A stretch of DNA of 64,000 nucleotides from assembly GCA_032372955.1 (NCBI GenBank), contig GCA_032372955.1_4725.1. The stretch is one strand, 5' to 3'. The notes below the pieces were generated by a model, which was not told where the DNA came from, ran no database searches, and saw only the letters and a program-made list of their open reading frames with translations. Positions 361-61,587 of this stretch are shown here, piece after piece. This DNA comes from Escherichia coli. Lineage in GTDB: Bacteria; Pseudomonadota; Gammaproteobacteria; Enterobacterales; Enterobacteriaceae. How positions within the stretch are numbered: position 1 is the stretch's first letter; each line of letters opens with the position of its first letter. Made by a program: the position numbers and the translations under genes.

Positions 361-393
361 CTCCTTACCCATGTGGGTAAGGAGGTACTTTTT
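361..393 (+). terminator. stem-loop with T-tract (intrinsic terminator-like)
   Basis: 10-bp perfect stem ctccttaccc/gggtaaggag with 4-nt loop, then T-run. Confidence 0.5.
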
Positions 394-399
394 ATGCCG
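391..399 (+). promoter_or_regulatory. TTTATGCCG element directly after hairpin (late-promoter-like)
   Basis: Exact 9-mer recurring after hairpins upstream of plus-strand genes. Confidence 0.35.
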
Positions 400-489
400 T
401 CATTTTGATGTAAGATCTTACCAGAACTCATTATTCTACGGATACATACGCCGTATATGAACTTTATTGTTAAGTAGGAATTTAAAAAG

Positions 490-1290
490 ATGCAAGAAGA
501 ACGCGATATGCCTAAATCACCAGATGTTATTATGCAAGCCTCTGAGAAAGCCACCAAGCTTGCTGTGAGTGTGTATGGCCCATGCCATCAAGAACTGTCT
601 TATGTCGATCTGCTTCATGCGGCTGAGCGCGCATTAGCGTGGACGTTGTATATTCACAAACACGCTTACCAGGCTTCTTTTAATGCGGTTAAAGAAGCTG
701 TTTCACCAATGCTGATTGACCTTGCAGGACGTAAAGCAATCGGGACAATATCCGCCGAAGAAGAACGTTCGACCCTTCATGAAATCCTGGGGGTGGCTGA
801 CGCATACGGTATTTCACTTGCGGTTATGGAACCGCAGCAGATTACTTTCGATGTATTGAACGATCGTGCATCTATCGTAAGACAACAAATTGGCCGTGCG
901 ATGGAACATCCGTCACTACCTGCTGTTTTGACGTATTTTAACACCGTATATTGGGGTTATACGTTACACCCAGAAATCGCCGCACCAGGTTCTGTTATTC
1001 CGTGCGTCGATCTGCTGATTCGTCTGTTGTGTAATACGACAATGGAGCCGCTGCGTTCATCGCACGTTCTGTTGACGGATGAAGAATTGGATGAGCTTCG
1101 CGCTATCTCTCCGACCGCACGCAGCATGGTGCAGTTATACCGCTACTTACAGAAAGCGGACGAACAAGACTTCATGTGGGAAGATCCGTCTGAAGGTGAC
1201 AGTGATGGGGAAGAAGATATCAAACAGACCCGCAATTACAAGGTGATTCGCTTCGCACGGAACGTTGCGGTATTATTGGAAAAAAGTTGA
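490..1290 (+). CDS. hypothetical protein
   Basis: 266-aa ORF; aggaa RBS-like sequence upstream. Confidence 0.55.
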   Translation: MQEERDMPKSPDVIMQASEKATKLAVSVYGPCHQELSYVDLLHAAERALAWTLYIHKHAYQASFNAVKEAVSPMLIDLAGRKAIGTISAEEERSTLHEILGVADAYGISLAVMEPQQITFDVLNDRASIVRQQIGRAMEHPSLPAVLTYFNTVYWGYTLHPEIAAPGSVIPCVDLLIRLLCNTTMEPLRSSHVLLTDEELDELRAISPTARSMVQLYRYLQKADEQDFMWEDPSEGDSDGEEDIKQTRNYKVIRFARNVAVLLEKS

Positions 1291-1313
1291 GGTCTATATT
1301 ACCTAACTGATAG
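1291..1313 (+). promoter_or_regulatory. TATATTAC element (early-promoter-like)
   Basis: ggtcTATATTACctaactg, about 120 nt upstream of gene 1426; same 8-mer upstream of four other genes. Confidence 0.45.
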
Positions 1314-1425
1314 AACGCAAGGAGTTTAAGAAGTAAACCTTAACCGACTTGTGTTTTCCCTATGAAGAAAGAATCTTCTGATTTTATCCTTTTGATCGAT
1401 CGAAAAAACTAATTGGAGTATTAAC

Positions 1426-1905
1426 ATGTCTGAAGCTGTAGAAACCACCGTAGCGACTGAAACCACTTCTAACGTACGTCCGGAAGTTCAGGCTCTTTCT
1501 GATAAAATCGCCGCTGGTATTAAACTGGACGAATCTGGTAGCCAGAAGCTAGGCAGTGATTTCCTGGGTACTCTGGTAACACCGGAAGAAAAAGAAATCC
1601 TGGAAAAAGCACAGAAACTGACCACGGATATCGGTCTGGCTCACGGTCTGGCGGTTGGCCGCGTTGGCGCGCAGTTCATGGCGGATAACAAACAGGTTGA
1701 CGTTGTTTCTGTAACCCTGCCGCTGGGCAAAGACGTTGTGTCTGCAACGGTTCAACGTAGCGCTGAAGTTGGTTTCGGCTCTAACGAGAAGAAACAGGTT
1801 TACGGACGCCTGACCACCGCGTATAAGAAATCTTTCCCAACAACTCAGGTTAAGCATATTCGCGACAACATCAGTGCGTATGCAGCTGAGCTGCTGAAAG
1901 ACTGA
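1426..1905 (+). CDS. hypothetical protein, strong codon bias suggesting high expression
   Basis: 159-aa ORF with ggag RBS; codon usage dominated by ctg/cgt/ggt/acc. Confidence 0.6.
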   Translation: MSEAVETTVATETTSNVRPEVQALSDKIAAGIKLDESGSQKLGSDFLGTLVTPEEKEILEKAQKLTTDIGLAHGLAVGRVGAQFMADNKQVDVVSVTLPLGKDVVSATVQRSAEVGFGSNEKKQVYGRLTTAYKKSFPTTQVKHIRDNISAYAAELLKD

Positions 1906-1933
1906 TTGTAACCTAACACGTCTCTCTGTATGA

Positions 1934-1990
1934 CCCCACCGTAGCCCTGTATGGGGTTGCGGTGGCGGTTATGTCAAGGTTTTATTTTTA
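1934..1990 (+). terminator. hairpin plus T-rich tract
   Basis: ccaccg...cggtgg stem followed by ttttattttta after the stop of gene 1426. Confidence 0.45.
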
Positions 1991-2008
1991 TCCTTTGGGG
2001 TTAGCGCT

Positions 2009-2422
2009 GTGTTTTTATACACCCTTCAATTAGCCAAACATCGTTGGCTTTCAGACACACGAGCGTTCCTACTGGACACGACGGTGAAAACAGGTAACCC
2101 GCTCTTCGCACCTTCATGGGAACTTGTTACAGGAATCAAATCAAAAACGTTAACCGAGGATGAATATACCGCAGGCTACTACACGCTTATGCGCAAAAGC
2201 TTTGTTGATCATACACCGGAATGGTTGGCTTTATTCTCCCATCCGGTTGTGGTGTTAGGGTGTTATTGTCCTGCAGGAAATTTCTGTCACCGTCATTTGC
2301 TTACCGATATCCTTGAAAAGATCGCCATTCAAGAACGATTTCATTTTGTTAGGGGAGGTGAGATAACCAGTAAGGAACAGCTCGATTCATTAATCGAGTT
2401 TTGGAATAAGGAGTTTGAGTAA
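2009..2422 (+). CDS. hypothetical protein (GTG start in track)
   Basis: 137-aa ORF; start codon uncertain. Confidence 0.4.
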   Translation: MFLYTLQLAKHRWLSDTRAFLLDTTVKTGNPLFAPSWELVTGIKSKTLTEDEYTAGYYTLMRKSFVDHTPEWLALFSHPVVVLGCYCPAGNFCHRHLLTDILEKIAIQERFHFVRGGEITSKEQLDSLIEFWNKEFE

Positions 2423-2961
2423 TGAGTGTTTTTCTTATCGGTGCAGCAAAACCTAACAACAACGAACTATTGGGTATTGCGGAAGAGTTGGATGAACATG
2501 GCATGATCGTTTACTCTATCGACAAAGCGCTCAAAAGACTGGAACGGTGGCGTAATCTCGTTACGGATACACTGGATCGACGTAGCATGGTCTACGGATA
2601 TATGTTAGAACAATACGATGTCGCCGATAGAGCATCCACCACGCGTTCTGGCGCATTGTTTAAGACAACAATAGGAAGTTACCAGTTCGGTGGATTAGAA
2701 TTGCTGGAAGCGTTATATAAGCTCTCAGAGGGCATTCATCACGATGATCTCGATGACCTTCGGGAATATGTGAATGAAAGACTCCCATTCGTGATTCCAG
2801 ACGCGCAACTGATGTTATTAACACAACGTGAGGAGGAACATCTTTACAAACTTGCTTGTACGACAATGCGTCATATTCGTCGTTATCGTAATCCTGAATT
2901 CATTGAATCCCAAGAATATCCTGATGTTATTTTCATTCGTGAAGCTAAGAACACACAGTAA
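2422..2961 (+). CDS. hypothetical protein
   Basis: 179-aa ORF; aaggag RBS; ATGA overlap with upstream stop. Confidence 0.55.
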   Translation: MSVFLIGAAKPNNNELLGIAEELDEHGMIVYSIDKALKRLERWRNLVTDTLDRRSMVYGYMLEQYDVADRASTTRSGALFKTTIGSYQFGGLELLEALYKLSEGIHHDDLDDLREYVNERLPFVIPDAQLMLLTQREEEHLYKLACTTMRHIRRYRNPEFIESQEYPDVIFIREAKNTQ

Positions 2962-2973
2962 ATAAACCATAAA

Positions 2974-3032
2974 CCTTCCTTCCCCGGCCTTGACGGCTAG
3001 GGAAGGAAGGGAGGTTAATATGCTTTTTTTTT
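2974..3032. terminator. bidirectional terminator hairpin between convergent genes
   Basis: ccttccttccc/gggaaggaagg 11-bp stem; T-run on plus side, A-rich tract on the other side. Confidence 0.55.
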
Positions 3033-3035
3033 ACG

Positions 3036-3926
3036 TTACACGCGAGGTGTTACGTTTTGATAAGTATTCGGTACCTCAAAGGTATCGTTGTTATCAAAGT
3101 CGAAGGTATAGCCAACCTTCTGCGCTGCCACAGCAGGATCGATGTCGCTCAGGTAAGCCGGACGGAAATCCGGGTTCACTTTAAGCAGGTTCATCTTATC
3201 CAGCAGACGTTGTGCGAAAGCACGTACGCCGTAGTTGGTCTGTGTTAACGCGGTGAACTGAATGCTCAATTCTACCACGTTTGGCGCATCGTTCTTGTTA
3301 CGACGTGATGTCCAGTCACCGGTACCGTGAGGCATCATGTTCGTGCACAGCCAGGCGTTAACCACTTTCTTGTGTTGACGGTCCGGCTCAACGAACAGCA
3401 TTGTTGCGCTACGATAATCCGCCAGCAGGTCGGTTGGACCACCGGTGGATACGATAGACGACAACATCGGATATTTGGCATCCGGATCCATCAACAGATA
3501 CGTGATCCATTGTTCCAGGAAGTAGCTAACGGAACGACCTTCTTTCTCATAGATCCCGAAAGTCGGGTTAGAGCGAGGACGTTTAACGTCAGAGACTTCT
3601 TCCTGGATTTCACCGGAACCAGAAACCGGGACGCTAACGAATTCAACTTCCAATCCGCGTTGCAGACCGGTAATCGAATGCGCAACCTCTTCTACCAACG
3701 CCTTCAGATAACCAATCTGTACATCCGGGTTAGGTAGATAGTTGAAACCACGTGGTGCCTCCAGCAGGAGACAGAACATTTGGTTCGGAATGTAGTTGGC
3801 GTTAGCAACGTACGTACCGATATTGCTGATGTACCCGTTTTGGGCACCCGCACGAATATCGACCATAGCCGCGTTGCTAAGAGCACCAACACCCTGTTCA
3901 CCGAGTAGGGTATTATCAGGACGCAT
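3036..3926 (-). CDS. putative tail tube protein
   Basis: 296-aa ORF immediately downstream of the 690-aa gene on the same strand; gaggag RBS. Assignment from size and gene order only. Confidence 0.4.
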   Translation of the reverse strand: MRPDNTLLGEQGVGALSNAAMVDIRAGAQNGYISNIGTYVANANYIPNQMFCLLLEAPRGFNYLPNPDVQIGYLKALVEEVAHSITGLQRGLEVEFVSVPVSGSGEIQEEVSDVKRPRSNPTFGIYEKEGRSVSYFLEQWITYLLMDPDAKYPMLSSIVSTGGPTDLLADYRSATMLFVEPDRQHKKVVNAWLCTNMMPHGTGDWTSRRNKNDAPNVVELSIQFTALTQTNYGVRAFAQRLLDKMNLLKVNPDFRPAYLSDIDPAVAAQKVGYTFDFDNNDTFEVPNTYQNVTPRV

Positions 3927-3941
3927 TATGGACTCCTCTCA

Positions 3942-6014: not shown

Positions 6015-6041
6015 GGAACTCTCCTTAATTTAAGGAAATTG

Positions 6042-6075: not shown

Positions 6076-6157
6076 GGCATAACGTAAAATATTACAATTA
6101 TGCGTAAATCTGTGTGCTTAACCCGTTTTCTTATATGCCGTAATAAAGGAATTACAT

Positions 6158-13771: not shown

Positions 13772-14092
13772 TTGAGGTACGCCATGGGCGATTCATTTGA
13801 TCATGACACACTTGAGCAATTACGTATTTTAATCAAACTTGTCGGGCAGCTGGAAACCGACGATAACTTAACAGATAACGCGCATTTTATTTTAAGCGAT
13901 AAGAACATCCTTGTCGAACGCATTCAAAATAAATGCCAACGTCTTCTGTTGTATGTAGAAGATCCTGATTGTTTAAGCGCTAGAACAAAACATCTATTCG
14001 ATGCGGGTATTCGTGTTTGCGCTCAATCGGAGGATCTTTTCTGTTGGCAAAGAGGTGTATTGTTTACGGCAAAAGGTCGCATTGAATTTTAA
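13772..14092 (+). CDS. hypothetical protein
   Basis: 106-aa ORF; gaggta RBS. Confidence 0.45.
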   Translation: MRYAMGDSFDHDTLEQLRILIKLVGQLETDDNLTDNAHFILSDKNILVERIQNKCQRLLLYVEDPDCLSARTKHLFDAGIRVCAQSEDLFCWQRGVLFTAKGRIEF

Positions 14093-14104
14093 GGCAAACA
14101 TAGT

Positions 14105-14153
14105 CCTCCTCTGGGTTCCATTCCCAGAGGAGGCTATGAGGCCTGAGCATTTT
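14105..14153 (+). terminator. hairpin plus T-tract
   Basis: 11-bp stem cctcctctggg/cccagaggagg, then atttttgg. Confidence 0.5.
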
Positions 14154-14285: not shown

Positions 14286-15530
14286 TTAACGCGACATCGC
14301 ACGTCGAACGTAATAGTTACGGCTAAACACACGAAGCAGGATATACAGAAAGACACCAGTGCGTGTCGCTGCAGCCTCAGCGTCGTTTCTCGCGTTGGTT
14401 GCTTTCTTAATGACTTCAGAGCCGAGTTTACGCAGTTCTAACAGTTTCGGGTTGCTGGTGCGGTTAGACGTGTACACGTTACGCATGTAGAATAAGAACG
14501 TAAGATCGCGCATATCGACCTTATTCAAGATGATATACTCGATAGCATGCTCCATTACAAGCCGCAACATCTGAGAGACCTGCTTTCCGTCCTTTGTCGG
14601 CCGTTCTACGTTAGCGCTGATATAGCTTAACGCTCGCTCAAGGGATAAAAGATTGGTAGTATGATGCACGTCGAGTATGACGACCATGAGCTCACGTTTA
14701 ACGAAACTTGTTCGGTCATAAGCGATTTCGAACAGATATTGACGATAAGTGGTTTCGTTGCGTTTAATGTCGCGGACAGCGAGGCCGTCGTCTAATTCTA
14801 CAGTTTGAGAGGACGTGCCTATCTTCTTACCCTCTTCATACATCGCATAGTACGTATCGGTGATACGGTTGATAACCTTACGGATTCCGGTATTCACATC
14901 ACGTACAAAACGTTCGGCGACGCTATCAGGTTCCAGGGTTGACCAACGACTGAAATGTGTGCTATTACGCGCGATGATGGCATTACAGCGTTCGTCGATG
15001 TACTCATTCCAGCTATTCATGCGCTTGATGCCTGATTTGAGTGTTAACTCATCGTACGCCTTAATGGCGATAGCCGGATCAGCGTTATAAGGATAACGTC
15101 GTGCTACCAGACCGCAAATGAATTTATAATGGAGGACTTGCATTGCTGCAAGCATCCCGGCTTCACGAACCTTTTCTTTTTTGATTTGTTTGCTGTGGAA
15201 GATCGCATAAAGCAACCAACAGCAACTTAGGTTAAAGGCGTTTGAGGCAACACGGTTGGTCTGCGTATTGTAAAAGGGCAGTTTACTCAAATCGCGTCGT
15301 AAGCTTTCTTCATCCATCATCAAGACGTCGGAAAACCACATATCGTTATGTCTTGTTGTGAATCGGATTTTCTGTACACCTAACAGAACCCCACCGAAAA
15401 AACGCATATGTTCTTGGTCTTGCGTACGGAAGCGTGTCGCGTAACGGATAACCTGATTAACAAAATACTCGTCGATGTCAATGCCTTCCGCATGCGCATT
15501 AAACACCTGTAAAATAGAAGACATGAGCAT
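14286..15530 (-). CDS. hypothetical protein
   Basis: 414-aa ORF; start may be the second ATG at 15524 (better RBS spacing). Confidence 0.55.
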   Translation of the reverse strand: MLMSSILQVFNAHAEGIDIDEYFVNQVIRYATRFRTQDQEHMRFFGGVLLGVQKIRFTTRHNDMWFSDVLMMDEESLRRDLSKLPFYNTQTNRVASNAFNLSCCWLLYAIFHSKQIKKEKVREAGMLAAMQVLHYKFICGLVARRYPYNADPAIAIKAYDELTLKSGIKRMNSWNEYIDERCNAIIARNSTHFSRWSTLEPDSVAERFVRDVNTGIRKVINRITDTYYAMYEEGKKIGTSSQTVELDDGLAVRDIKRNETTYRQYLFEIAYDRTSFVKRELMVVILDVHHTTNLLSLERALSYISANVERPTKDGKQVSQMLRLVMEHAIEYIILNKVDMRDLTFLFYMRNVYTSNRTSNPKLLELRKLGSEVIKKATNARNDAEAAATRTGVFLYILLRVFSRNYYVRRAMSR

Positions 15531-15635
15531 GCTCCCTCAGATGGTAAACGTAATAAAGACTGTCATATCATCGCGAAATGGAGATTAAAATAAACCTACA
15601 TTACCTTCCTGATTACACTCGCGGAAGGCAATGCA

Positions 15636-17121: not shown

Positions 17122-17147
17122 CATAAAAGAGATAAACAGATACTACG

Positions 17148-17190
17148 CCGTCTCGAGTTGTCTCGAGACGGTAAGTTTATACTGTTTTGC
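17148..17190 (+). terminator. hairpin terminator
   Basis: 10-bp stem ccgtctcgag/ctcgagacgg then T-rich sequence. Confidence 0.5.
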
Positions 17191-22614: not shown

Positions 22615-22623
22615 GTTCTATCG

Positions 22624-22650
22624 AGCCTGTCCTTCGGGGCAGGCTTTTAT
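22624..22650 (+). terminator. hairpin plus T-run
   Basis: gcctgtcc ttcg gggcaggc then ttttat. Confidence 0.5.
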
Positions 22651-22654
22651 GCCG
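22646..22654 (+). promoter_or_regulatory. TTTATGCCG element after hairpin (late-promoter-like)
   Basis: Exact 9-mer 14 nt upstream of the ATG of gene 22668. Confidence 0.4.
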
Positions 22655-22667: not shown

Positions 22668-22988
22668 ATGGGAAAGTGGTGGGAGAAAATAAGAAAGCGG
22701 TTTAACGATTGGAATCAGGAACGGCAAGATCGTAAGGATATTGAAGTTATGCGTGGTTACCCAGCGTATACCAACACGTACCTTACGCTCTACTACAATC
22801 GCTCAAAGAAAGAATGGACATTTGAATGGGATGATTTGTTCGCTAACCCCAGACCTGCACATTGGCCATTCCACGACTGTGTTATGGTTGTCCCTCCAGA
22901 TACCAGAGCAACGGAGGATGAAATAAAGCGTGCTTGGGACGTCTTAGACGAAAGAGGTATCGGTGGTATTCGAAGAGGGAGAAAATGA
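22668..22988 (+). CDS. hypothetical protein
   Basis: 106 aa; aggaga RBS. Confidence 0.5.
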   Translation: MGKWWEKIRKRFNDWNQERQDRKDIEVMRGYPAYTNTYLTLYYNRSKKEWTFEWDDLFANPRPAHWPFHDCVMVVPPDTRATEDEIKRAWDVLDERGIGGIRRGRK

Positions 22989-26662: not shown

Positions 26663-26698
26663 AACCGATCTGGCTTCGGCTGGATCGGTTCTTTTTTA
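26663..26698 (+). terminator. hairpin plus T-run
   Basis: aaccgatc...gatcggtt stem then cttttttat. Confidence 0.5.
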
Positions 26699-26703
26699 TG
26701 CCG
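26695..26703 (+). promoter_or_regulatory. TTTATGCCG element after hairpin (late-promoter-like)
   Basis: Exact 9-mer about 60 nt upstream of gene 26766. Confidence 0.4.
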
Positions 26704-28985: not shown

Positions 28986-30080
28986 TTATGCACCAGCAGG
29001 AAGAATTTTTAAGAGGTCGGCAACCTGTGCAATAACTTCACGTCTTAAATCGCCAGGTAACGGAGAGGATTCCCAGTTACCTTCTTTTAGACTCCGGTCG
29101 GCAGCACGGTACAGGTCATTATCGATTTGACTGCTGAACCCGACGCTTTCAGATACGTTTTGCAATGTGACGAGTTGTTGCCATAATGACAGACAACCCA
29201 GATCCCTTGCCCATCTCGTTTGTCGAAGATCGACGGTGTAGCCCATTCGGGTTGCTTGGTACTGATCCCCGTATAAACTCGGTATCTGTTTAAGCATGTC
29301 GGTGTAGCTTCGTCTTCTGCGTAATAAATGATGCTGTACAGACAGAACGACTTGACTGAATACGTTATCCAGGTCGTTAACGTAAATTGGTGATTTGAGT
29401 GGATTCTTAGCCGGAGATACCCATAAACAACGATTGCGTATAACAACATCGTTGTGTGAGTATAATGCGTTAACCAACGGAAAACTCGCAAGAAAGCTTG
29501 TAACCGGTTCTTTAACCACCCATTTACCGTCGTCGTTATGACCCATGACCAAAGACCACATTCGATACTGTAGCGCTAATAAAGGTACATCAACCATAAT
29601 GACCGCAAAACCTCGTCCTTCTTCAACCTGCTTTTGGTGAAGAGGAATGTAACGAAGATTTGCGTATGGGTGCGTCACGATTCTAACTGGTGACCAATTA
29701 CGCCAGTTGTCAAGAATGTCACGTGAAATAAGACGACTTTCACCGGTTGCGATAATAGCTTCGTGCAATCCTGGATAGAAAGCACCGTCGAATAACTTAC
29801 CCGCGTATCTTGATGTTGTCAACTTGACACGATTACCCAATTCTGGGGTAAGATCGAGAATCATGTCGTAGTAAGTTTGTACTGAGATGTCGTATCTCAT
29901 AGGGAGCTGTGCAAGCAGCAACGCAAGGATGTGATCGCTCTGAACCGCGAAGGTAAAACCCTGATAGTGGTTCTGGATTGTCTGTAGGTTTCTTTGAACT
30001 TCGCGTATTAGATAGTCTTTCTGAGGGACGGGTTGCACACCCGATGATGTTCGCGGGAGGTTATTTAAAACACGAAACAT
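28986..30080 (-). CDS. hypothetical protein
   Basis: 364 aa; acggag RBS. Confidence 0.55.
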   Translation of the reverse strand: MFRVLNNLPRTSSGVQPVPQKDYLIREVQRNLQTIQNHYQGFTFAVQSDHILALLLAQLPMRYDISVQTYYDMILDLTPELGNRVKLTTSRYAGKLFDGAFYPGLHEAIIATGESRLISRDILDNWRNWSPVRIVTHPYANLRYIPLHQKQVEEGRGFAVIMVDVPLLALQYRMWSLVMGHNDDGKWVVKEPVTSFLASFPLVNALYSHNDVVIRNRCLWVSPAKNPLKSPIYVNDLDNVFSQVVLSVQHHLLRRRRSYTDMLKQIPSLYGDQYQATRMGYTVDLRQTRWARDLGCLSLWQQLVTLQNVSESVGFSSQIDNDLYRAADRSLKEGNWESSPLPGDLRREVIAQVADLLKILPAGA

Positions 30081-30250
30081 ACGAACTCCGTAAGAAGATG
30101 GTAAACGGATATGACATTACTCTCAATAAGAGAAGTAAAAGTTTACAGACATATCCTGATTATATGTAGAAAGAATGTTGCTTCTCGGCAGCGTTCGCCT
30201 AGGGGTTTATATCGTTCAATGTGGTTACACCAATATTGAAAAAAATTTCA

Positions 30251-30270
30251 GGGTTATATTACCTAGGTGA
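30251..30270 (+). promoter_or_regulatory. TATATTAC element (early-promoter-like)
   Basis: gggtTATATTACctaggtg about 75 nt upstream of the chimallin candidate. Confidence 0.45.
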
Positions 30271-30334
30271 ATGAGCGAGTAGAAGCTGATTCAATGACGT
30301 CATTTAATAAAGTTTAAGAAAAGAGGAATCCCAA

Positions 30335-32256: not shown

Positions 32257-32305
32257 GGGAGGGAGGGCAACCTCCCTCCCTTATACGTCCTAACGTTCTT
32301 TTTCA
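32257..32305 (+). terminator. hairpin plus T-run
   Basis: gggagggagg gcaa cctccctccc 10-bp stem then ttcttttt. Confidence 0.55.
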
Positions 32306-32322: not shown

Positions 32323-33672
32323 ATGGCCATCATGCTCGATATCGTGAGTTTCGATAGACAGCTCGCAGAACTTCCTTTTACGCCGATTTTGTTGAATGAT
32401 TACGATACAAAAGTCGTCGAAGAGAAGAAGAAATTAAACAGTTTTATTACCCGTGTTTACTCCAGCGATACGTTGGATATCACGCCACAATGTGGTTGTG
32501 GTTTCTACAATCGTGGTGAGCTACTCGGCACGGTGTGTCCAAACTGTAAAACGGTTGTAACCTACCCAGCAGAACAAGAGATTCGTTCGACGGTTTGGGC
32601 GCGTGTTCCTGAAGGAATCGATGCGTTCATTAACCCGTTGGTCCATCTCGTGCTGGCAAGCGAGTTGAATATCAAAAGCTTTGAAACGATGACGTGGCTA
32701 ATTGATGCCAGTTACCGTCCAAATGTAAAACGACCCATCGAACTCAAGAACTATCTGGAGCAGCAATTCGATGTATTCGGGATACGGCGCGGTGTAAATA
32801 GCTTTATACAGAACTTCGATCGCATCATGGAGATCTTGTATAAAGGACCTACGTTACGTGGACCGAAGAACACGGAGAAAGTTGACACACTACGAGAATT
32901 CATCCGTATCCATCGTGATAAGTTCTTCAGTCAGTATATCAGCTTTCCTGCGGCCATGATGTTCGTTATCGAGAATACGCCAACCGGTCGTTATGCGGAT
33001 AGCAAAATGGAAGGTGCGATCGATGCTATCGGTACGTTGAACAGTATCTATCATCCAACAACACCTTTGAGCGCCAGAAAGAAAGAAAACTGGATGGCGA
33101 AAGTGCAATTGAAGCTGCTGCAATACCATGCGGCGATTTTCGATGAGTTCATCGGTAAGAAGAAAGGTATTACACGTAAAAACATATTAGGTACATTACA
33201 TCCATTCACCACGCGTACCGTAATCAGTTCGATAACAGCGAACCATCGTTATTATCATCTGCATTTCCCATACGCGCCATTTACTTTAACCAATAAAGAA
33301 CATATCCAATCCAAGTTATTCCATCGTGGTTATTCGCCAAGAGCAGCACGTGCGTTCGTTGCGGAACATGTTCGCAATTATCATCCGATGATGAGCGAGC
33401 TGCATGATGAGCTTATTGCTGATACACCGTTCGATGGGATTGTGTGTGGTTTTGTTCGAAACCCATCACTTGACCGAAGCAGTAACCAATGTCTTGAAAT
33501 CACCAAGGTTAAACGCGATCCGCAGGATAACACCATCGGGTTAAGCGTGATGATCTTGAAAGGGTCGTTAGGCCCAGTAACGCAGAAATGTTGTTACGAG
33601 GAACTCCCTAATGCGGGAACCTACTTAGAGCCTTGTCCACCAACCACGTCTGGGAACAGAGTGTGGGGCTGA
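32323..33672 (+). CDS. multisubunit RNA polymerase beta-prime-like subunit, N-terminal fragment (exon 1; ORF as drawn reads into an intron)
   Basis: Zn-finger CGCGFYNRGELLGTVCPNCK aligns to E. coli beta-prime C70-C88; RTVISS (cf RSVITV) and RNPSLDR (cf RAPTLHR) follow; the ORF stops before any NADFDGD and group I intron cores start at about 33685. True exon 1 end is probably near 33565. Confidence 0.7.
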   Translation: MAIMLDIVSFDRQLAELPFTPILLNDYDTKVVEEKKKLNSFITRVYSSDTLDITPQCGCGFYNRGELLGTVCPNCKTVVTYPAEQEIRSTVWARVPEGIDAFINPLVHLVLASELNIKSFETMTWLIDASYRPNVKRPIELKNYLEQQFDVFGIRRGVNSFIQNFDRIMEILYKGPTLRGPKNTEKVDTLREFIRIHRDKFFSQYISFPAAMMFVIENTPTGRYADSKMEGAIDAIGTLNSIYHPTTPLSARKKENWMAKVQLKLLQYHAAIFDEFIGKKKGITRKNILGTLHPFTTRTVISSITANHRYYHLHFPYAPFTLTNKEHIQSKLFHRGYSPRAARAFVAEHVRNYHPMMSELHDELIADTPFDGIVCGFVRNPSLDRSSNQCLEITKVKRDPQDNTIGLSVMILKGSLGPVTQKCCYEELPNAGTYLEPCPPTTSGNRVWG

Positions 33673-35570: not shown

Positions 35571-35585
35571 TCCATTTAATGGCTG

Positions 35586-35610
35586 CCCTCCCTGCCTTAT
35601 GCAGGGAGGG
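35586..35610 (+). terminator. hairpin
   Basis: ccctccctgc cttat gcagggaggg 10-bp stem. Confidence 0.5.
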
Positions 35611-35619
35611 TTTATGCCG
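35611..35619 (+). promoter_or_regulatory. TTTATGCCG element after hairpin (late-promoter-like)
   Basis: Exact 9-mer about 35 nt upstream of the probable start at 35653. Confidence 0.4.
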
Positions 35620-37034: not shown

Positions 37035-37048
37035 GTATTTTTGCGGTC

Positions 37049-37096
37049 TCTCCCTACCTTCGGGTGGGGAGGGGCTGCCCATTCTTTTTTATTTTT
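37049..37096 (+). terminator. hairpin plus T-run
   Basis: tctccctacc ttcg ggtggggag then cttttttatttttg. Confidence 0.55.
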
Positions 37097-45045: not shown

Positions 45046-46326
45046 ATGTCGAAGCTTATCGAAGCTTATCGCAAAGCACTACAGAGCGTTAACTATTTTG
45101 AGAATGACGCCCACGAATTAGAATATCGTTTTACGGATGGGGATGGTAAAGTTGTTGCGGTTGCCGCTACCGTGGAAAGCATGCCGCTGCTGATGCCGGT
45201 TTCCGAAGTTCGTACCGGAAATCAGCTGGCTGAACGTGTGCTGTTCCATCCGCTAAGTGAAGACGTGATGAACGGCGAATCGGAAGTACTTCAGTTCCTG
45301 CGTCGTGCGATGGTTGTTCGTTTTAATGCCACGCTATGCTCCATGCTGATTTGGATGGTTGAAACCGCAATCAATCCTAAAGAAGCAAAACGTTTCGGAC
45401 CGAAGCAAAAAGAGTTCTTCAACATCCTTGCGGACGCCAGCGATAAAACATTAACGACCCTGGGCAAACTGGTCACCGTTTGGCTGAAACGTGACACACC
45501 GTATACGCTGTCCAAAATTTATCTTCGTCGTACTGGTGCAACCTACATGGGTAAGAAGATGACCCGTGTTGCGGTCGTTACTTTCCCGTTCATGGAAGAA
45601 GAACACATCAGCACGAAAGATAAGAAAACGTACTGGTGTGGTGTTGAGATTTCCAAGAAAGATCTTAACATGCTGAGAAACCTGGTTGAGTACGTTATCC
45701 CGCACGCGGGCGAAGTAAGTGAAACGTACAATGCTGGGTCAAGCGATCCTCATGCTCCGTATTTCGATTGTCTTATCCACAGCTTCGCTAAGCTGATGGA
45801 ACCGCTGAACCATCTCATCAAACTGTTTGGTGATAAGTACGACGGTAAAGAGAACGGTTATTGTGATGTTACCTGGGTCGAGGATTTTGAACCGATCAAT
45901 CAACATCGTGGTCAGATTCCGCCAGCGAAATACAACATGGGTGTAACGCTGAACAGTCGTCCACAGCCGACGGTTAAGCCAAACCCATCAGCAGCTGCAC
46001 ATGAAGGTATGCAACCGCGTCCTGCTTCAACAGGCAGTGTGATCGATAACCTGTTGGGTAAAACCGCACCTGTCCAACCTAATCAGTGGGAAAGTGGTGG
46101 TAACCAACCGGCAGGTAATAGTACGTTTGATGCGTTGATGAACCGTGTTGCGGAACGTAACGGTACGATGTTCAATAATGCTGCTTGGCCAGGCATGGGC
46201 ATGCAACCTGCTGGGTGGGGGATGCCGCCAGCACCGCAGTCGCCAAACGGTTTACGTCGTCGTGCTGAGATGGAACGTAACAACATCCTGAGCGCGTGGA
46301 CAGGACATACTGTAAATCGTTTCTGA
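45046..46326 (+). CDS. hypothetical protein with Pro/Gln/Gly-rich C-terminus
   Basis: 426 aa; aagga RBS; 10-nt tandem duplication gaagcttatc x2 at the start. Confidence 0.55.
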   Translation: MSKLIEAYRKALQSVNYFENDAHELEYRFTDGDGKVVAVAATVESMPLLMPVSEVRTGNQLAERVLFHPLSEDVMNGESEVLQFLRRAMVVRFNATLCSMLIWMVETAINPKEAKRFGPKQKEFFNILADASDKTLTTLGKLVTVWLKRDTPYTLSKIYLRRTGATYMGKKMTRVAVVTFPFMEEEHISTKDKKTYWCGVEISKKDLNMLRNLVEYVIPHAGEVSETYNAGSSDPHAPYFDCLIHSFAKLMEPLNHLIKLFGDKYDGKENGYCDVTWVEDFEPINQHRGQIPPAKYNMGVTLNSRPQPTVKPNPSAAAHEGMQPRPASTGSVIDNLLGKTAPVQPNQWESGGNQPAGNSTFDALMNRVAERNGTMFNNAAWPGMGMQPAGWGMPPAPQSPNGLRRRAEMERNNILSAWTGHTVNRF

Positions 46327-46357
46327 TGTATTAAGTCATCGAACGACGGCATAAATG

Positions 46358-46386
46358 CCCTCCCTACGCTTTACGCTGTGGGAGGG
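46358..46386. terminator. bidirectional hairpin between convergent genes
   Basis: ccctccc ... gggaggg. Confidence 0.5.
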
Positions 46387-46391
46387 TTATC

Positions 46392-46757
46392 TTAAGCGCT
46401 GTAGTGGATTGTGCGGTACTGTTGTTTTAATGTGTTGATTGCGCTTGTATCGACAATCTTCATGGTTAGAACATCGGCGGTGTATTCCGTAGGGTCGCGA
46501 TAACCATTGAGTCTCATGGTTATCCAGTGCATTGGTTCACTGCCCTCACCGAGCAGAACACGGCACAATCCATAAAAGTTACCATCGAATTCGTAGGCGC
46601 GTTCGGGTGGTATGTCTATCGTAGAGACCAGTCCGGCATTTTTGAAATATTCCAGATGCATCTCAACAACGTTCCTGAAATCAAGATCGTGGATGAGGTC
46701 ATCGGGGTTTGTCTTAAGAAAGTCGTTCAGGGGCGTGTTAGACATGACGTACCTCAA
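46392..46757 (-). CDS. hypothetical protein
   Basis: 121 aa; gaggta RBS on minus strand. Confidence 0.5.
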   Translation of the reverse strand: MRYVMSNTPLNDFLKTNPDDLIHDLDFRNVVEMHLEYFKNAGLVSTIDIPPERAYEFDGNFYGLCRVLLGEGSEPMHWITMRLNGYRDPTEYTADVLTMKIVDTSAINTLKQQYRTIHYSA

Positions 46758-49367: not shown

Positions 49368-49387
49368 TGCATATTACGCCTCCTCCT

Positions 49388-49417
49388 GCCCATGTGGTGG
49401 GAGGAGGATGTTTATGC
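49388..49417 (+). terminator. GC-rich hairpin
   Basis: cctcctcc ... ggaggagg. Confidence 0.45.
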
Positions 49418-49420
49418 TGA

Positions 49421-50243: not shown

Positions 50244-50295
50244 CCTCCCTCTCCCATGCGGAGGTGGGAGGGAATTATGTCGTTGTTTTTATTTT
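50244..50295 (+). terminator. hairpin plus T-run
   Basis: ccctccctctcc catgc ggaggtgggaggg then ttgtttttatttt. Confidence 0.55.
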
Positions 50296-54595: not shown

Positions 54596-54663
54596 CGATA
54601 GCGTTTGGTGGAATCAAAAATCAATGAGGGGCCTCGAAGCAGGCCCTTATAACCGGAGCATGT

Positions 54664-55557
54664 ATGTCACAAGTAAGAGGCGTGAAACAAATCGCCAATT
54701 TAATGATGTTAAGTGGTGAGACACAGCAGGAACGTGAGCTGGTCTTCTTTGGTAAACTGGCTGAAGACGGTGTTGAACGTCTTCGTCAAGTCGCATCAAA
54801 AATCGAACATATGGTGCAACATCAATGGTTGTTTGATAACACAGCCGTTGGTGGTGTGAAAGGTCAGGTGCGCGCACGTGCGATACAGATCGATAACGAA
54901 GAACCGAAATACATCATGACTACGAAGGTGTATCGCGGTCCAGGTGATGCAACGGAAAGCGAAGTCGAAATTCCGGTCGAGATGTTTGACGCGATCGAAC
55001 GTATGGCTCCTGAAGGCCAAGCGAAAACACGTTACACCGTAGAAAGCGCTGATGGTCTGGCATGGGAAGTTGACGTCATCTATACACGAGACCACCAGGT
55101 TGTTGAGTGGACGAAGATCGATATTGAAATTCCGGCTGGAACTTATCTTCGTGAAAATCCGACGTTGCCTGAAGCGTTGAGTGATGTGTTTGTGCAGATG
55201 ATCGATCGTCCTCACGCAAAACGTACGGATGAAGAGAACGCTATTCTTGACGATCTGTTCAAGAACAAATTCTACATCAAGAACGATAAGGTTGTGGTGA
55301 GCAAACTTCCTGAAGGGTTTGAACGCTTTGTTGATCCTAAGGTCGTCATTGAAATGCTGATGCCTGCCATCGAACCTCTCGTAAATATGATTCCAGCGTT
55401 AAGCTACAACGAGAAGTATTTTGATTTCGATGAAGAAGGTCAGCTGAAAAGCGCTTTACAAGAACTCAAGCATGCCGCACTCAGTGTCTTACGTTTAAGT
55501 AAGAAGAACAACGAAGAGTGTGATTGCGACCAAGATAAGAATGGAGAAAATGAATGA
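54664..55557 (+). CDS. hypothetical protein
   Basis: 297 aa; ggag RBS. Confidence 0.5.
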   Translation: MSQVRGVKQIANLMMLSGETQQERELVFFGKLAEDGVERLRQVASKIEHMVQHQWLFDNTAVGGVKGQVRARAIQIDNEEPKYIMTTKVYRGPGDATESEVEIPVEMFDAIERMAPEGQAKTRYTVESADGLAWEVDVIYTRDHQVVEWTKIDIEIPAGTYLRENPTLPEALSDVFVQMIDRPHAKRTDEENAILDDLFKNKFYIKNDKVVVSKLPEGFERFVDPKVVIEMLMPAIEPLVNMIPALSYNEKYFDFDEEGQLKSALQELKHAALSVLRLSKKNNEECDCDQDKNGENE

Positions 55558-55892
55558 ACGTACAACAAATCTGTTTAATCGATGATCAGTTCAGTGAAAT
55601 TAACGGTGAGCGTTACAATGTTGTAAGCTGGACGCTTTCGATGGTCCAGGCTGCTGAACAATTCCCGATGGACAAACACAGCCCTGAAGCGTTCCGCGAT
55701 GTCTATAAACAAACCCAGCTGGTTGACCGTAAACTACCCGAAGGTTACGACGACGAGAAACTACTGAACGATATTAAGCGTGCGTTCGCCTTACACATGC
55801 TAACCTTAACCGAAGACGATCCTTTAGAAATCCCTGACGAGTGGCTTATCTACGATATGGAAGCCTACTTCATGAAAGAACTCTGGTTCTAA
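55554..55892 (+). CDS. hypothetical protein
   Basis: 112 aa; ggaga RBS; ATGA overlap with upstream stop. Confidence 0.5.
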   Translation: MNVQQICLIDDQFSEINGERYNVVSWTLSMVQAAEQFPMDKHSPEAFRDVYKQTQLVDRKLPEGYDDEKLLNDIKRAFALHMLTLTEDDPLEIPDEWLIYDMEAYFMKELWF

Positions 55893-55910
55893 ATTAAATT
55901 GACATAAACC

Positions 55911-55967
55911 TTCCTCCCCGCCCGTTATGGGTAGGGAGGAAGATATGCTAACTATTTTTTTTTTTAC
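55911..55967. terminator. bidirectional hairpin with long T-run
   Basis: cttcctccc ... gggaggaag then a T11 run, between convergent genes. Confidence 0.55.
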
Positions 55968-57415
55968 TCGGTGAAGTGTGGTTTATAACCAGCCTGCCAT
56001 GCGGCGGTCATGGCGTCGTAGTTGATGTGTGAAGTGCCTGCCGGGAATGTCCAACCACTCAGATCCTGATTGAACGCGAAGCACCCAGACAACATATTGT
56101 TTGCATTCTTAACAGACGAAACATCCCACGAACCGATCGGTTGGTTGAATGTAGCGCAACCGTAGAAGAGGTCCTTCATTGAAGTAATGTTGCGGGTGTT
56201 CCATTTGGTGATGTTCACGTCGTTAATAACGCTGCATCGCGTAAACATACCTTCTAACGATGTCCAGTATGCCGGGATATAATCGGGAACCTTAGTTAAA
56301 CTGTTCGCCGCAAGGAATGATGGGGCCTTAGGTAATCCGTTGTTCCAGTCAACGATTTCAGTGATGTTACCACCGGTGAAGCTTTGCTGTACCTCTGTAT
56401 CTTCAACATTGGTAGGGGTACCCGTAGCGACGATCGTACGTTCCGTAGTGTCCGCATAAGTGTGCCGATATTCATTATCGCCTGAGTCCTGCGTCGTCTT
56501 ATTCCCATCACCCCAATCGATATTGACATTTGTCCAACCATCTAATGACAATATAATGCTGCCGCCTTTTGTTTTAAGAACGTATTGGATTGGTTTAGGT
56601 GAAGCGTGACCAACAACCATAGCACCCTTAAGGCTACCGATAACCCAATCTTTCTTGGTGGTTACCAGTAACTCGGCGTCACCGTATGACCGCACCTCTA
56701 CTCTACGAGCGTCTTCGCTTCCGTTAATTGTCTGCATTGCTTGTTGCATTTGTTCGCTGGTAATATCACCATAACGAACCATGACGTTCAGGATATTCTG
56801 GAAGTACGCAGCGTCAAGGACACCTTCAGTTGTTTCGGCATTTCCGTTTTCGCCGATAACCGAGGTTGTTGCTAACAGTAACGAACCAGATGTGTCAGCT
56901 TCAACGCCATCCAGATAAACCAGATTCGTAAGATTGGTTTGCTTGATGATCGTAATCAAGCTCAACGTATCGTTAGCGATATTGAACTGAAGATTACCAG
57001 CCCAAACATAAGACGTGTTTGCAACCGGAACCGTAATGTCTTTAATACCGGTGTCTTCGAACGTAATCTGCTTATTCAGCTCGGATTCGAGGAAGTCGAC
57101 GGTTGTGTCGAATACCAATCCGTAACGTTCAGCGATCGTGTTGATGATATCCCTTACGGCGGTATCATTTTTAACGATAACCCGTAACGGGATCCCAGTG
57201 AAGTTTTTAGCGATGTCTCGACGGATATAGGTCAGGGACTGCTCGTTAAAGTAACGGCTAGCATCGTTCGGTTTGATCGTAACAACAACCGTTCCGGGCA
57301 CTTCGCTTACCGGTTCAGTTAGTTCAAATTTTACGTCGTCTAATGTCAGCTGTAAGCTGTTTTTGCTATTTACTAACGCGAGAAGTTCGTCTTTCCAGCT
57401 TTGTTTGAGTTTCAT
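55964..57415 (-). CDS. BspA-like/DUF285-type repeat protein (candidate fibre or adhesin)
   Basis: 483 aa; C-terminal repeats GMFTRCSVINDVNITKWNTRNITSMKDLFYGCATFNQPIGSWDVSSVKNANNMLSGCFAFNQDLSGWTF match the F..C..FNQ.I..WDVS.V..M pattern. Confidence 0.45.
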   Translation of the reverse strand: MKLKQSWKDELLALVNSKNSLQLTLDDVKFELTEPVSEVPGTVVVTIKPNDASRYFNEQSLTYIRRDIAKNFTGIPLRVIVKNDTAVRDIINTIAERYGLVFDTTVDFLESELNKQITFEDTGIKDITVPVANTSYVWAGNLQFNIANDTLSLITIIKQTNLTNLVYLDGVEADTSGSLLLATTSVIGENGNAETTEGVLDAAYFQNILNVMVRYGDITSEQMQQAMQTINGSEDARRVEVRSYGDAELLVTTKKDWVIGSLKGAMVVGHASPKPIQYVLKTKGGSIILSLDGWTNVNIDWGDGNKTTQDSGDNEYRHTYADTTERTIVATGTPTNVEDTEVQQSFTGGNITEIVDWNNGLPKAPSFLAANSLTKVPDYIPAYWTSLEGMFTRCSVINDVNITKWNTRNITSMKDLFYGCATFNQPIGSWDVSSVKNANNMLSGCFAFNQDLSGWTFPAGTSHINYDAMTAAWQAGYKPHFTE

Positions 57416-57481
57416 TTATTCTGCCTTATTAAATAAGTACAACGCATATACGTCATACGATCTTGCAACAAATACAGCATA

Positions 57482-57509
57482 AAGCTCTGCATGATGTCAG
57501 GTAGAGCTT
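57482..57509 (-). terminator. hairpin downstream of minus-strand helicase gene
   Basis: aagctct ... agagctt arms. Confidence 0.35.
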
Positions 57510-57514
57510 CTTAA

Positions 57515-59596: not shown

Positions 59597-59636
59597 AATC
59601 GCGCTCGATTTAATAGAATGTATGATAAAAACTCCT

Positions 59637-59664
59637 CCCCACACCTTTCCTGGGGAGGAGGCCG
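59637..59664. other. GC-rich hairpin in divergent intergenic region
   Basis: 9-bp stem ctcctcccc/ggggaggag. Confidence 0.35.
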
Positions 59665-59739
59665 GGGATGTCCCTTAAAATGACGTCATTCGACAATCCA
59701 TAAAATACGATGGGCATCGAAACGGACCAACACAAATCC

Positions 59740-59759
59740 TTTCACGGCTATATTACTTA
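59740..59759 (+). promoter_or_regulatory. TATATTAC element (early-promoter-like)
   Basis: tttcacggcTATATTACtta, identical 20-mer to 36460-36479; about 50 nt upstream of gene 59805. Confidence 0.5.
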
Positions 59760-59804
59760 CGTGGGTAAAGAAAATTTATTAATAGATTCAAAGAGGTACG
59801 TGCG

Positions 59805-60491
59805 ATGAAATCTTTATATTCGTTGGATTGTTTAAATTTCTTATCTCAGGAAACACGCGCTGAAGTAATTGAAAATATTCGGAAGAACGATCTTGCCCAT
59901 CAAGAAGAACATGTGCTTGCTGTTGTTGAACTGGCAAATGAACTTGCTGATGTGGTTGGTATCATCAAGCCCACGGAACGTCGTCGTCTATTAACGGCTG
60001 CTTTTATGCATGATATCGCTTGCCACGAAAACAGAACATACCACCACCTTATCGGGGGTATTCGTGCGTCGGTTATACTGCTTCGTAACGAGCAGCATAT
60101 TTTCACACCGGAAGACATCGAGGAGATACGCGTACTTATTGCTGAGCATCGTGCGTCGTATTCTGGTCCACGTAGCTCGGTTGCTTCTCAGGTGCTTCGT
60201 CTGGCGGATATGGGTCGTCTCGATAGCGAACGTTTTGGTATCCGTGCAATCGAACATCGTTACGGTCAGATGAGCAAAGAGTTCGCATTACAGGAAACCG
60301 CCGACTATCTTATTTCTAAATTTGCGCCTGATGGCTACGCTTGGATTACGTATCCGGCGTTAGGTCAGCAACTTTATATGAAAGAGATTGCGGTGATTAA
60401 ATCGCTCTGTGCGGATCGTGATAAACTCATTGCTTATTTGGATGATGTTTATACGTATGTTGAAAAGAAACATGGTGAAATCATGTGTTAA
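59805..60491 (+). CDS. HD-domain phosphohydrolase-like protein
   Basis: 228 aa with H...HD...D pattern (EEHVLAV, FMHDIACH, LIAEHRASY, LRLADMGRLD). Confidence 0.45.
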   Translation: MKSLYSLDCLNFLSQETRAEVIENIRKNDLAHQEEHVLAVVELANELADVVGIIKPTERRRLLTAAFMHDIACHENRTYHHLIGGIRASVILLRNEQHIFTPEDIEEIRVLIAEHRASYSGPRSSVASQVLRLADMGRLDSERFGIRAIEHRYGQMSKEFALQETADYLISKFAPDGYAWITYPALGQQLYMKEIAVIKSLCADRDKLIAYLDDVYTYVEKKHGEIMC

Positions 60492-60513
60492 ACATGAAAG
60501 CGGAGAATAATGA

Positions 60514-60996
60514 ATGAGTATCGTTGATTTAACATTAACAGAAGTTGGTGATGGTATTGAGGTTTCGATGAAAACCTCCGACGATCGCACCGTTGTTGCT
60601 AAACTGGAAGAAACCCTGTACGGCAATTACGTGGTGGGCGTTTCAGGGAAGGTGAGTATGTATCGCCTGGCTGGTATTTTAAGCGTCTTTGATGGGGGAT
60701 TGCTGCCGTCCGACCAACTCGAGCTCCAGAACAAATTGATCGACAATGACTTCTACACGGAAAATGTGAAAGTCTTTGGTTACAGCATGATGGGTGGTGT
60801 ATTTAGCGCCGCGACGAACACGCTTAACTTCGGTACCCAACAACTGATTCAGTTCAGTATCGAAAAGGGTAAACTGAAAACGGCGTGGAAAGGCAGCGCT
60901 GCATTCACACCAACCGATCTTCTGCTTACTTCCGCAGAACAGCATTTAAAAGCAAGTAAATCGGGTCGTGCGTTTCTGGAGCAATTAAATCAATGA
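60514..60996 (+). CDS. hypothetical protein
   Basis: 160 aa; ggaga RBS. Confidence 0.5.
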   Translation: MSIVDLTLTEVGDGIEVSMKTSDDRTVVAKLEETLYGNYVVGVSGKVSMYRLAGILSVFDGGLLPSDQLELQNKLIDNDFYTENVKVFGYSMMGGVFSAATNTLNFGTQQLIQFSIEKGKLKTAWKGSAAFTPTDLLLTSAEQHLKASKSGRAFLEQLNQ

Positions 60997-61550
60997 CCCC
61001 GGCCATCTTCTTTATGTCGGATACCCATTTTGATAGCGAGCGTACCTGGACGTATTCACGCCGTCCGTTCGCAAGCGTCGCTGATATGAACCAGCACATG
61101 CTGAAAGCCATCAACAAGCTTCCAAAGAACAGTGTGTTGTGGCATTTAGGTGATTGGGGTAAGTTCGAGTTCGTGGAAGCCATTCGTTCTGATATCCAGG
61201 TTCAATTGGTATTGGGGAATTGGGACGAAGACGCATACAAAGCAACAGGATTAAGCTTTGAAGCGTGGCGTGATAAATTGCTCGGTATGGGGTTTGCTGC
61301 GGTTTATGAACATCCGTTGGTATTGCCGATTAGCAATGACGAATCCTACTGGCTATGCCATAAGCCCAGCGAAAGAAACCCAGGCTACTTTAATTTATTC
61401 GGTCATATTCATCGCTGTATGTTAGCGAAGGCTAACGGACTTAATGTCGGCGTTGATCAGCATTTCTATGCGCCGATTAGTTTGGACACCGTGCGTTTTT
61501 GGCGTAATGCGATAGAAAATCATTACGACGAAGAAGTATGGATGGAGTGA
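60993..61550 (+). CDS. calcineurin-like metallophosphoesterase
   Basis: 185 aa with MSDTHF (DxH), HLGDWG (GD), LGNWDED (GNH[DE]-like), GHIHRC (GHxH). Confidence 0.7.
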   Translation: MTPAIFFMSDTHFDSERTWTYSRRPFASVADMNQHMLKAINKLPKNSVLWHLGDWGKFEFVEAIRSDIQVQLVLGNWDEDAYKATGLSFEAWRDKLLGMGFAAVYEHPLVLPISNDESYWLCHKPSERNPGYFNLFGHIHRCMLAKANGLNVGVDQHFYAPISLDTVRFWRNAIENHYDEEVWME

Positions 61551-61560
61551 TCATTAACCA

Positions 61561-61578
61561 CCCTCCCTTCGGGGAGGG
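61561..61578 (+). terminator. hairpin
   Basis: ccctccc ttcg gggaggg. Confidence 0.5.
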
Positions 61579-61587
61579 TTTATGCTG
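61579..61587 (+). promoter_or_regulatory. TTTATGCTG element after hairpin (late-promoter-like)
   Basis: 30 nt upstream of gene 61617. Confidence 0.35.

Follow-up and report, generated by a model that had tools for sequence, protein, structure and literature searches.

Hairpin-coupled TTTATGCYG elements as probable intrinsic-type transcription terminators in a Goslar-like nucleus-forming jumbo phage

We have analysed a stretch of 64,000 nt (contig GCA_032372955.1_4725.1 of the Escherichia coli assembly GCA_032372955.1; hereafter the window) and, within it, a recurrent element in which a GC-rich hairpin is followed by the word TTTATGCYG. The window shares 97.7% identity with Escherichia phage Goslar, which belongs to the nucleus-forming jumbo phages (Chimalliviridae), and corresponds to the minus strand of that genome. 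Among its genes are those for chimallin, PhuZ, the tail sheath and the terminase, and several encode fragments of RNA polymerase (beta and beta'), i.e., the split subunits of the chimallivirus transcription apparatus. A preliminary description of this DNA, which had taken it for a phiKZ-like phage, was right in this respect. No known RNA families or tRNAs were detected in the window at gathering scores. The same description had read the elements as junctions at which the hairpin ends the upstream transcript and the next one begins immediately, at the TATG.

The word TTTATGCYG has eight exact matches on the two strands of the window, against 1.03 expected and a maximum of three in 100 dinucleotide shuffles. 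Six are on the plus strand, starting at 391, 22646, 26695, 35611, 49411 and 61579, and two on the minus strand (46347-46355 and 57475-57483). The six plus-strand sites that had been described before are real, with the fifth starting at 49411 instead of 49421, and the two minus-strand copies had been missed; the distance to the next plus-strand start, given earlier as 15-65 nt, measures 13-90 nt. At all eight sites a hairpin ends 0-4 nt before the motif, with folding energies of -16 to -26 kcal/mol at seven of them and a weaker one (-9.7) at the 57475 copy. The stems, in the exact sites and in the variants described below, have 8-16 bp and mostly read CCTCCC...GGGAGG, several with UUCG loops. 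This pyrimidine-rich 5' arm and purine-rich 3' arm, with a word of the form YTTATKYYGT directly 3' of the stem, is the anatomy of the terminators of phages phiKZ and 201phi2-1. When the motif was relaxed, more hairpin-coupled copies appeared (TTATGTC, AATTATGTCGT, TTTATACTG, TTATACGTCC and two-sided copies at convergent gene ends), and the most enriched 5-mers after strong hairpins in the window were TTATG, TTTAT and TATGC (p = 5e-11 to 2e-8), with TATG present in 15 of 45 flanks of such hairpins against a background of 4% (p = 1e-10).

On the plus strand, the first element (359..399) consists of a hairpin at 359-386 (12 bp, -21.8 kcal/mol), the spacer ACTT and TTTATGCCG at 391-399; it lies 3' of a head-maturation-protease homolog and 90 nt 5' of the gene at 490. 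At 22623..22654 a hairpin with a UUCG loop (22623-22646) runs into TTTATGCCG (22646-22654) and the next start, at 22668, is 13 nt away, while at 26663..26703 a hairpin also closed by UUCG (26663-26690) is followed by CTTT and TTTATGCCG (26695-26703), with the DNA polymerase gene 62 nt 3'; both are annotated as terminators in Goslar. The element at 35585..35619 (hairpin 35585-35611, then TTTATGCCG at 35611-35619) is 33 nt from the next start, that at 49379..49419 (hairpin 49379-49407, ATG, TTTATGCTG at 49411-49419) 63 nt, and that at 61560..61587 (hairpin 61560-61579 with a UUCG loop, TTTATGCTG at 61579-61587) 29 nt. On the minus strand, the element at 46347..46387 has a hairpin, the spacer CA and TTTATGCCG (46355 down to 46347), and that at 57475..57509, with the helicase gene on one side and the gene 55964..57415 on the other, a weak hairpin (57484-57507) followed by TTTATGCTG (57483 down to 57475); in Goslar the latter has a perfect stem followed by TTCATGCTG and is annotated as a terminator. 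The genes 3' of the window sites (DNA polymerase, small hypothetical proteins) carry no late structural annotation.

A promoter element should need a gene downstream, and a terminator element should need a gene upstream on the same strand. We therefore used the Goslar annotation to classify all intergenic hairpins of -10 kcal/mol or below by their gene context, and scored a TATG starting from -2 to +10 nt after the stem. In the sense orientation the TATG followed 24 of 56 Goslar hairpins whose next gene is co-directional (10 of 17 in the window) and 12 of 22 of those facing a convergent gene (6 of 7). On the antisense side it was found at 3 of 43 (window, 1 of 15), inside coding sequences at 10 of 339 (1 of 83), and in divergent, that is promoter-only, regions at none of 15 (none of 4). 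The background of this test is 3-7%, and the sense-convergent and antisense classes differ with p = 4e-5, while the tandem and convergent classes of Goslar intergenic hairpins do not differ in TATG frequency (p = 0.45). In Goslar and in the window alike, the TATG is tied to the presence of a same-strand gene upstream, whatever follows, and not to a gene downstream, which is where the terminators of phiKZ and 201phi2-1 are found. This is seen best in the minus-strand copy at 46347, which comes after a lone minus-strand gene (46392..46757) and leads directly into the convergent gene 45046..46326, with no following gene on its own strand. Over the whole of Goslar, the profile after the hairpins is TATG-C(22/36)-Y(28/36)-G(22/36)-T(18/36). 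The hairpins are also more stable on the sense strand (37 vs 4 of 56; mean -17.7 vs -14.9 kcal/mol), as expected of a structure formed in RNA; G.U pairs, which on the opposite strand become A.C mismatches, account for part of the difference.

The coupling to the hairpin is obligate. Goslar has 24 intergenic copies of TATGCYG against some 4.7 expected, and 21 of them come directly after a hairpin; the other three are at chance level, one of them being cut off by the start of the record. The whole excess of the intergenic word is thus hairpin-coupled. Likewise, Goslar has four exact 9-mers that lack a hairpin; all are within genes, and four is the number expected by chance. One of the two complete hairpin-less intergenic copies is the variant that the preliminary description had placed at 6131: TTATATGCCG is indeed present at 6131-6140 (plus strand), where the tail-sheath gene and the gene at 6158 diverge, and, having no hairpin and being at chance level, it falls outside the class of elements discussed here. 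Its position, in a promoter-only region before a structural gene, would fit a promoter. However, a stand-alone promoter reading of the word had to be rejected, as no TTTATGCYG-like consensus was found in all 40 Goslar divergent upstream regions, four of which carry an early-promoter-like TATATTAC. After a hairpin, the word is absent from divergent regions, where a transcript must begin, and present at the ends of convergent genes.

To compare the elements with experimentally located transcript ends we turned to phiKZ, a relative with genome-wide 5' and 3' end maps, from which 126 of 149 starts and 118 of 133 termination sites were taken from the preprint supplement and checked against the genome sequence. 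In phiKZ, the 3' ends at hairpins lie 3-8 nt after the stem; among the terminators made of a hairpin and TTAT, the mapped end is at -3 to +2 nt from the base that follows TTAT in 52 of 62, and among the hairpin plus TATG elements it is within 4 nt of the G in 28 of 92. No start maps to within 3 nt of the G in any of these 92; the closest ones are found 6-49 nt past the element, at early, middle or late motifs of their own, two of them using a second TATG, as in CTTATGCTATG. The motif at which phiKZ transcripts end is the one found in the window.

These numbers bear directly on the junction between terminator and promoter that had been proposed, in which the non-virion polymerase would restart at the G of the TATG next to the hairpin. 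There are good grounds for the idea. The late-promoter core of phiKZ had been named correctly: it is TATG, with G as +1, and it is necessary (Yakunina et al., 2015; PMC4666361). A pocket of the phage polymerase binds TATG in the non-template strand (IUCrJ 2026; PMC12809450), half of its contact residues are unchanged in the Goslar homolog, all eight window sites have the TATG, a co-directional gene starts 13-90 nt downstream at seven of them, and at 22646 no alternative promoter fits. However, TATG alone is insufficient for promoter activity (PMC4666361), it is as frequent at hairpins that face a convergent gene as in tandem contexts and it is absent from promoter-only regions, hairpin-less intergenic copies do not exceed chance, and none of the 92 phiKZ equivalents has a mapped start at this place. 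The flanks tell the two classes apart as well. Late promoters of phiKZ have T-9, A-8, A-7 (73% A, 0% G), T-6 and C-4 upstream and A or T after the G (C in 9%), while its terminators are G-rich from -13 to -7, with T at -4, and continue after the G with Y (86%), Y (92%), G (58%) and T (78%). The window sites, with their G-rich stem at -13 to -6, hence a G at -7, and with C or T at +1 of these flanks as the beginning of C-Y-G-T, fit the terminators and not the class T-A-A-T-n-C-TATG followed by A or T. The model late promoter of phiKZ, P119L, lies in a divergent region and has no hairpin. A restart at the adjacent TATG is in our view improbable. Of the two halves of the earlier proposal, the ending of upstream transcripts at the hairpins agrees with the context test, the phiKZ 3' ends and the motif match, from which termination in this phage may be extrapolated; the start of the next transcript at the TATG is countered by the convergent copies, the lack of divergent ones, the 0/92 and the flanks.

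The letters ATG so close to a purine-rich arm invite yet another interpretation, namely that GGAGG in the 3' arm and the ATG 3-8 nt further on are the ribosome-binding site and start codon of a gene or leader peptide. They do look like it, and the Goslar annotation begins gp183 at the ATG of the motif; the ATGs at 35614 and 49414, two of the eight, share the frame of the next gene. In a frame analysis of the eight, however, five open frames of only 4-22 codons with no peptide in common, and one begins a frame that is antisense within a convergent gene. The bases resembling a ribosome-binding site are sequestered in the stem, the conserved letters after the ATG (G-C-Y-G-T, counted from its G) are not codon-like, and phiKZ 3' ends map at the ATG itself. 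We have accordingly rejected the start-codon reading, to which we give hardly any probability. In the case of the ATG at 35614 (plus strand), another ATG in the same frame, at 35653 and with GAGG before it, is the more plausible start of gp183.

The signal is conserved across the family. Of 13 TATG-carrying elements compared between the window and Goslar, 12 keep the TATG while loops and flanks drift, and only at 57475 does Goslar have TTCATGCTG instead. In Erwinia phage RAY and Klebsiella phage Eowyn the words most enriched after strong hairpins are TTATG, TATGC and TGCCG, and in Ralstonia phage RSL2 the top word is CTATG. The presence of the same words in relatives infecting different hosts suggests that the signal follows the phage's own transcription machinery; phage T4 was a weak negative control, with eight strong hairpins in 50 kb. 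The relatives available in the phage collection and in IMG/VR are all 96-99% identical, too close for covariation, and no informative covariation was found in the hairpins among them, only one C-for-T swap at the degenerate position (an IMG/VR relative reads TTTATGCTG at the 26663..26703 site) and some loop inversions. The latter are a peculiarity of their own: compared with Goslar, the apexes of the hairpins at 359-386, 1936-1965 and 35585-35611 are exactly reverse-complemented (ATGT/ACAT, CCCTGTATGGGG/CCCCATACAGGG, CTTAT/ATAAG) with the stems kept, and look like inversions of the loop as produced by template switching at inverted repeats.

Taken together, we believe that the sites are very probably strand-specific, factor-independent (intrinsic-type) terminators, as used throughout the nucleus-forming jumbo phages (Chimalliviridae). 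The TATG in them belongs to the stop signal, and its identity with the late-promoter core does not make the sites starts. The transcript of the upstream gene would fold into the hairpin, whose 5' arm is usually rich in C and whose 3' arm is usually rich in G, with a loop that is often of the UUCG type; a short U-rich tract, (U)UUAU, and G-C-Y-G-(U) come next, and the multisubunit RNA polymerase of the phage itself would release the RNA within or just past UUAUG. Expression of the next gene would then depend on read-through or on a promoter of its own further downstream. The 3' ends at the window sites, and the phage enzyme as the one responding to them, are what we would expect on this reading.

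Several points weigh against this reading. The literature searched contained no mapping of 5' or 3' ends for Goslar or for this phage, so that termination here is inferred from signal homology. The phiKZ sites come from a machine-read PDF, with a resolution of the ends of about 2 nt and from a mapping that misses some starts. At 22646 the motif is only 13 nt before the next start codon, which leaves no room for another promoter and makes either read-through or a start at the TATG of the motif necessary. Finally, the conserved G-C-Y-G-T after the U-rich tract is not explained by a simple model of hairpin plus U.

The mapped 3' ends, 3-8 nt past the stem, might also be left by a nuclease that trims the RNA as far as a hairpin protecting it, or by a cut within the unpaired UUAUG, and the fact that the hairpins act at the RNA level and on the sense strand only would suit processing or stabilization. 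In uninfected cells, however, selected 201phi2-1 terminators spanning the motif classes of that phage blocked transcription when placed between two reporter genes (Poppeliers et al., 2024; PMC11512511). Besides, the conserved G-Y-Y-G-T lies past the mapped 3' end, where a signal read in the DNA or by the polymerase explains it more easily than an RNA that is no longer there. We regard RNA processing as a very unlikely origin of these sites.

If the sites are terminators, the presence of the late-promoter core in them could have a mechanistic reason. The pocket of the beta-like subunit that reads TATG at promoters might capture the same word during elongation, giving a sequence-specific pause at the terminators; as soon as the hairpin has formed, the enzyme would be held there, its active site on the G, and release would then need no more than the short, interrupted U tract. 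Were this true, one 4-mer would mark both the start and the end of RNAs, told apart by the context of the flanks only. Consistent with a pause are the conservation of the pocket (the Goslar homolog shares 7 of the 14 contact residues, compared with 24% identity overall), the phiKZ 3' ends within 2-3 nt of the G and the conservation of the word across hosts. Against it count that, by the published description, the pocket is not complete in the transcribing complex and is closed during elongation (IUCrJ 2026; PMC12809450), and that only about half of the phiKZ terminators have a G after TTAT. The structural paper does not mention pausing or termination, and the idea is, for the moment, a doubtful one. 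Nevertheless, TATG both at late-promoter starts and at the release sites of terminators of a sigma-less polymerase makes pausing and termination a testable question. In more practical terms, a hairpin followed by (T)TTATGCYG(T) should serve as a reliable guide to transcript ends, and to their strand, in Goslar-like phages and other enterobacterial chimalliviruses. Only part of these sites are marked in the GenBank records, and in at least one case (gp183) the ATG of the motif was mistaken for a start codon. For CRISPRi-ART, antisense oligomer and transposon mutagenesis experiments, likely operon boundaries, and hence the limits of polar effects, can be drawn from the sites.

Besides the exact matches, the window contains a number of putative terminators with variant words. 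On the plus strand, the one at 1936..1975 has a 13-bp hairpin (1936-1965), whose stem includes G.U pairs valid on this strand only, followed by CGG and TTATGTC; that at 17147..17184 has a hairpin at 17147-17172, AAG and TTTATACTG, with TATA instead of TATG; that at 32257..32290, 3' of the chimallin gene, has a hairpin (32257-32280) with the G-rich arm first and then TTATACGTCC; and at 50249..50283 a hairpin at 50249-50272 is followed by AATTATGTCGT. Three others are probably bidirectional and sit between convergent genes. The first (2967..3033; hairpin 2974-3010), between 2422..2961 (plus) and 3036..3926 (minus), continues with GAGGTTAATATGC and a run of nine T on the plus strand and with TTTATGG on the minus strand. 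The second (14099..14138; hairpin 14105-14133), between 13772..14092 (plus) and 14286..15530 (minus), has CTATG on the plus side and ACTATG on the minus side. The third (55903..55947; hairpin 55908-55944), between 55554..55892 (plus) and 55964..57415 (minus), has ATATGCTAAC and a T run on the plus side and TTTATGTC on the other.

Another hairpin stands apart by its location. At 59629-59663 on the minus strand there is a strong hairpin followed by TTTTTATC and annotated as a terminator in Goslar. It belongs to a divergent region, 5' of the helicase gene, and a TTTTATGG precedes it by about 40 nt. Such a hairpin might serve as an attenuator in the 5' untranslated region and yield a short RNA, as described for P112/T102 of phiKZ. 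Outside the window, TATGCCGTCAAGCAA is found at both ends of the Goslar record (positions 27 and 237279), a repetition which indicates that the Goslar assembly has a terminal repeat including one of these terminators.

Some promoter-like sequences were also noted. GGGTTATATTACCTAGGTG at 30255-30275 (plus strand), 65 nt before the chimallin gene, and GGCTATATTACTTACGTGG at 59742-59762 (plus strand), ahead of the gene at 59805, have in common TATATTAC, which is the core of the mapped early promoters of phiKZ (..GTATATTAC..). There are four such sites in Goslar, in divergent regions, and they are likely early promoters of the virion polymerase. A 12-nt palindrome, AATGACGTCATT, adjoins both window sites (at ca. 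30300 and ca. 59680), downstream of one and upstream of the other. On the minus strand, a 12-mer, CGTTTACCATCT, is found within 15530-15570 and 30080-30120, 15-20 nt 5' of the start codon in two isolated genes (14286..15530 and 28986..30080), and contains TTTACC, reminiscent of the phiKZ middle-promoter word AAanTTACc. As for the polymerase genes, the region 33545-34323 (plus strand) differs from Goslar in that 1065 nt with an HNH endonuclease gene are absent and 368 nt are extra (33564-33931). It contains two tandem matches to group I introns below the gathering score of 50 (33545-33881, 30 bits; 33996-34323, 44 bits), which either follow directly on the RNA polymerase beta' open reading frame 32323..33672 or overlap its end.

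How, then, do these elements compare with the known ways of ending and starting a transcript? Canonical bacterial intrinsic terminators have a GC-rich hairpin and a U-rich stretch, with release of the RNA a few nt past the stem. The window elements share the hairpin and the U-rich stretch, but in place of an uninterrupted tract of 6-8 U they have a short, interrupted one, UUUAU (3-6 U, A, U), followed by the conserved G-C-Y-G-T. A long run of T is added or substituted at a few sites (37043-37096, 3023-3033 and from 55958 onward). As regards pausing, E. coli RNA polymerase reportedly recognizes a consensus elemental pause, G-10, Y-1, G+1, in work attributed to Larson et al. 2014 and Vvedenskaya et al. 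2014. A 3' end at the U before the G would give Y-1, G+1 and a G-rich region around -10. This is a resemblance only; the polymerases are highly diverged, and a G at exactly -10 is not specifically conserved. With the late promoters of phiKZ the elements have the TATG in common, its G being +1 there and within some 2-3 nt of the RNA 3' end at the terminators; the surroundings differ, with an AT-rich upstream signature, no hairpin and A/T after the G in the promoters, and a G-rich stem reaching to -5 and C-Y-G-T in the window elements.

The closest likeness is to the terminators of phiKZ itself, for which long-read mapping yielded the motif BCCYCCCCHWWDGGGRRGGBYTTATKYYGT at 61 experimentally mapped sites, in a paper whose main text leaves the TATG unmentioned (Putzeys et al., 2024, Microlife; PMC10914365). 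In both phages a CCYCCC...GGGRGG stem-loop is followed by YTTATKYYGT, the elements are found 3' of genes, often before the next promoter, two-sided copies occur between convergent genes, and the Goslar consensus (T)(T)TATG-C-Y-G-T is the same word. There are also differences. The two phages differ in host and in GC content (37% in phiKZ, 46% here), and the G after TTAT is found in most copies here and in about half of those of phiKZ. In phiKZ the flanks are palindromic (CATAA-hairpin-TTATG) even in one-directional blocks, whereas the one-directional copies of the window have the word on the sense side only; an extension of the stem by pairing of TTATG with an upstream CATAA, which holds for the phiKZ flanks, was rejected for these window sites, as the upstream partner is missing. 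A relative of this motif outside phiKZ is 'motif A' of 201phi2-1, with 59 sites, which we compared by the description in that paper and which its authors found to resemble the phiKZ motif strongly; eight selected terminators of this phage, spanning its motif classes, were assayed in a terminator trap, several of them performing at least as well as the positive control (Poppeliers et al., 2024; PMC11512511). Judged by their sequence, the window sites would be further members of this known kind of motif.

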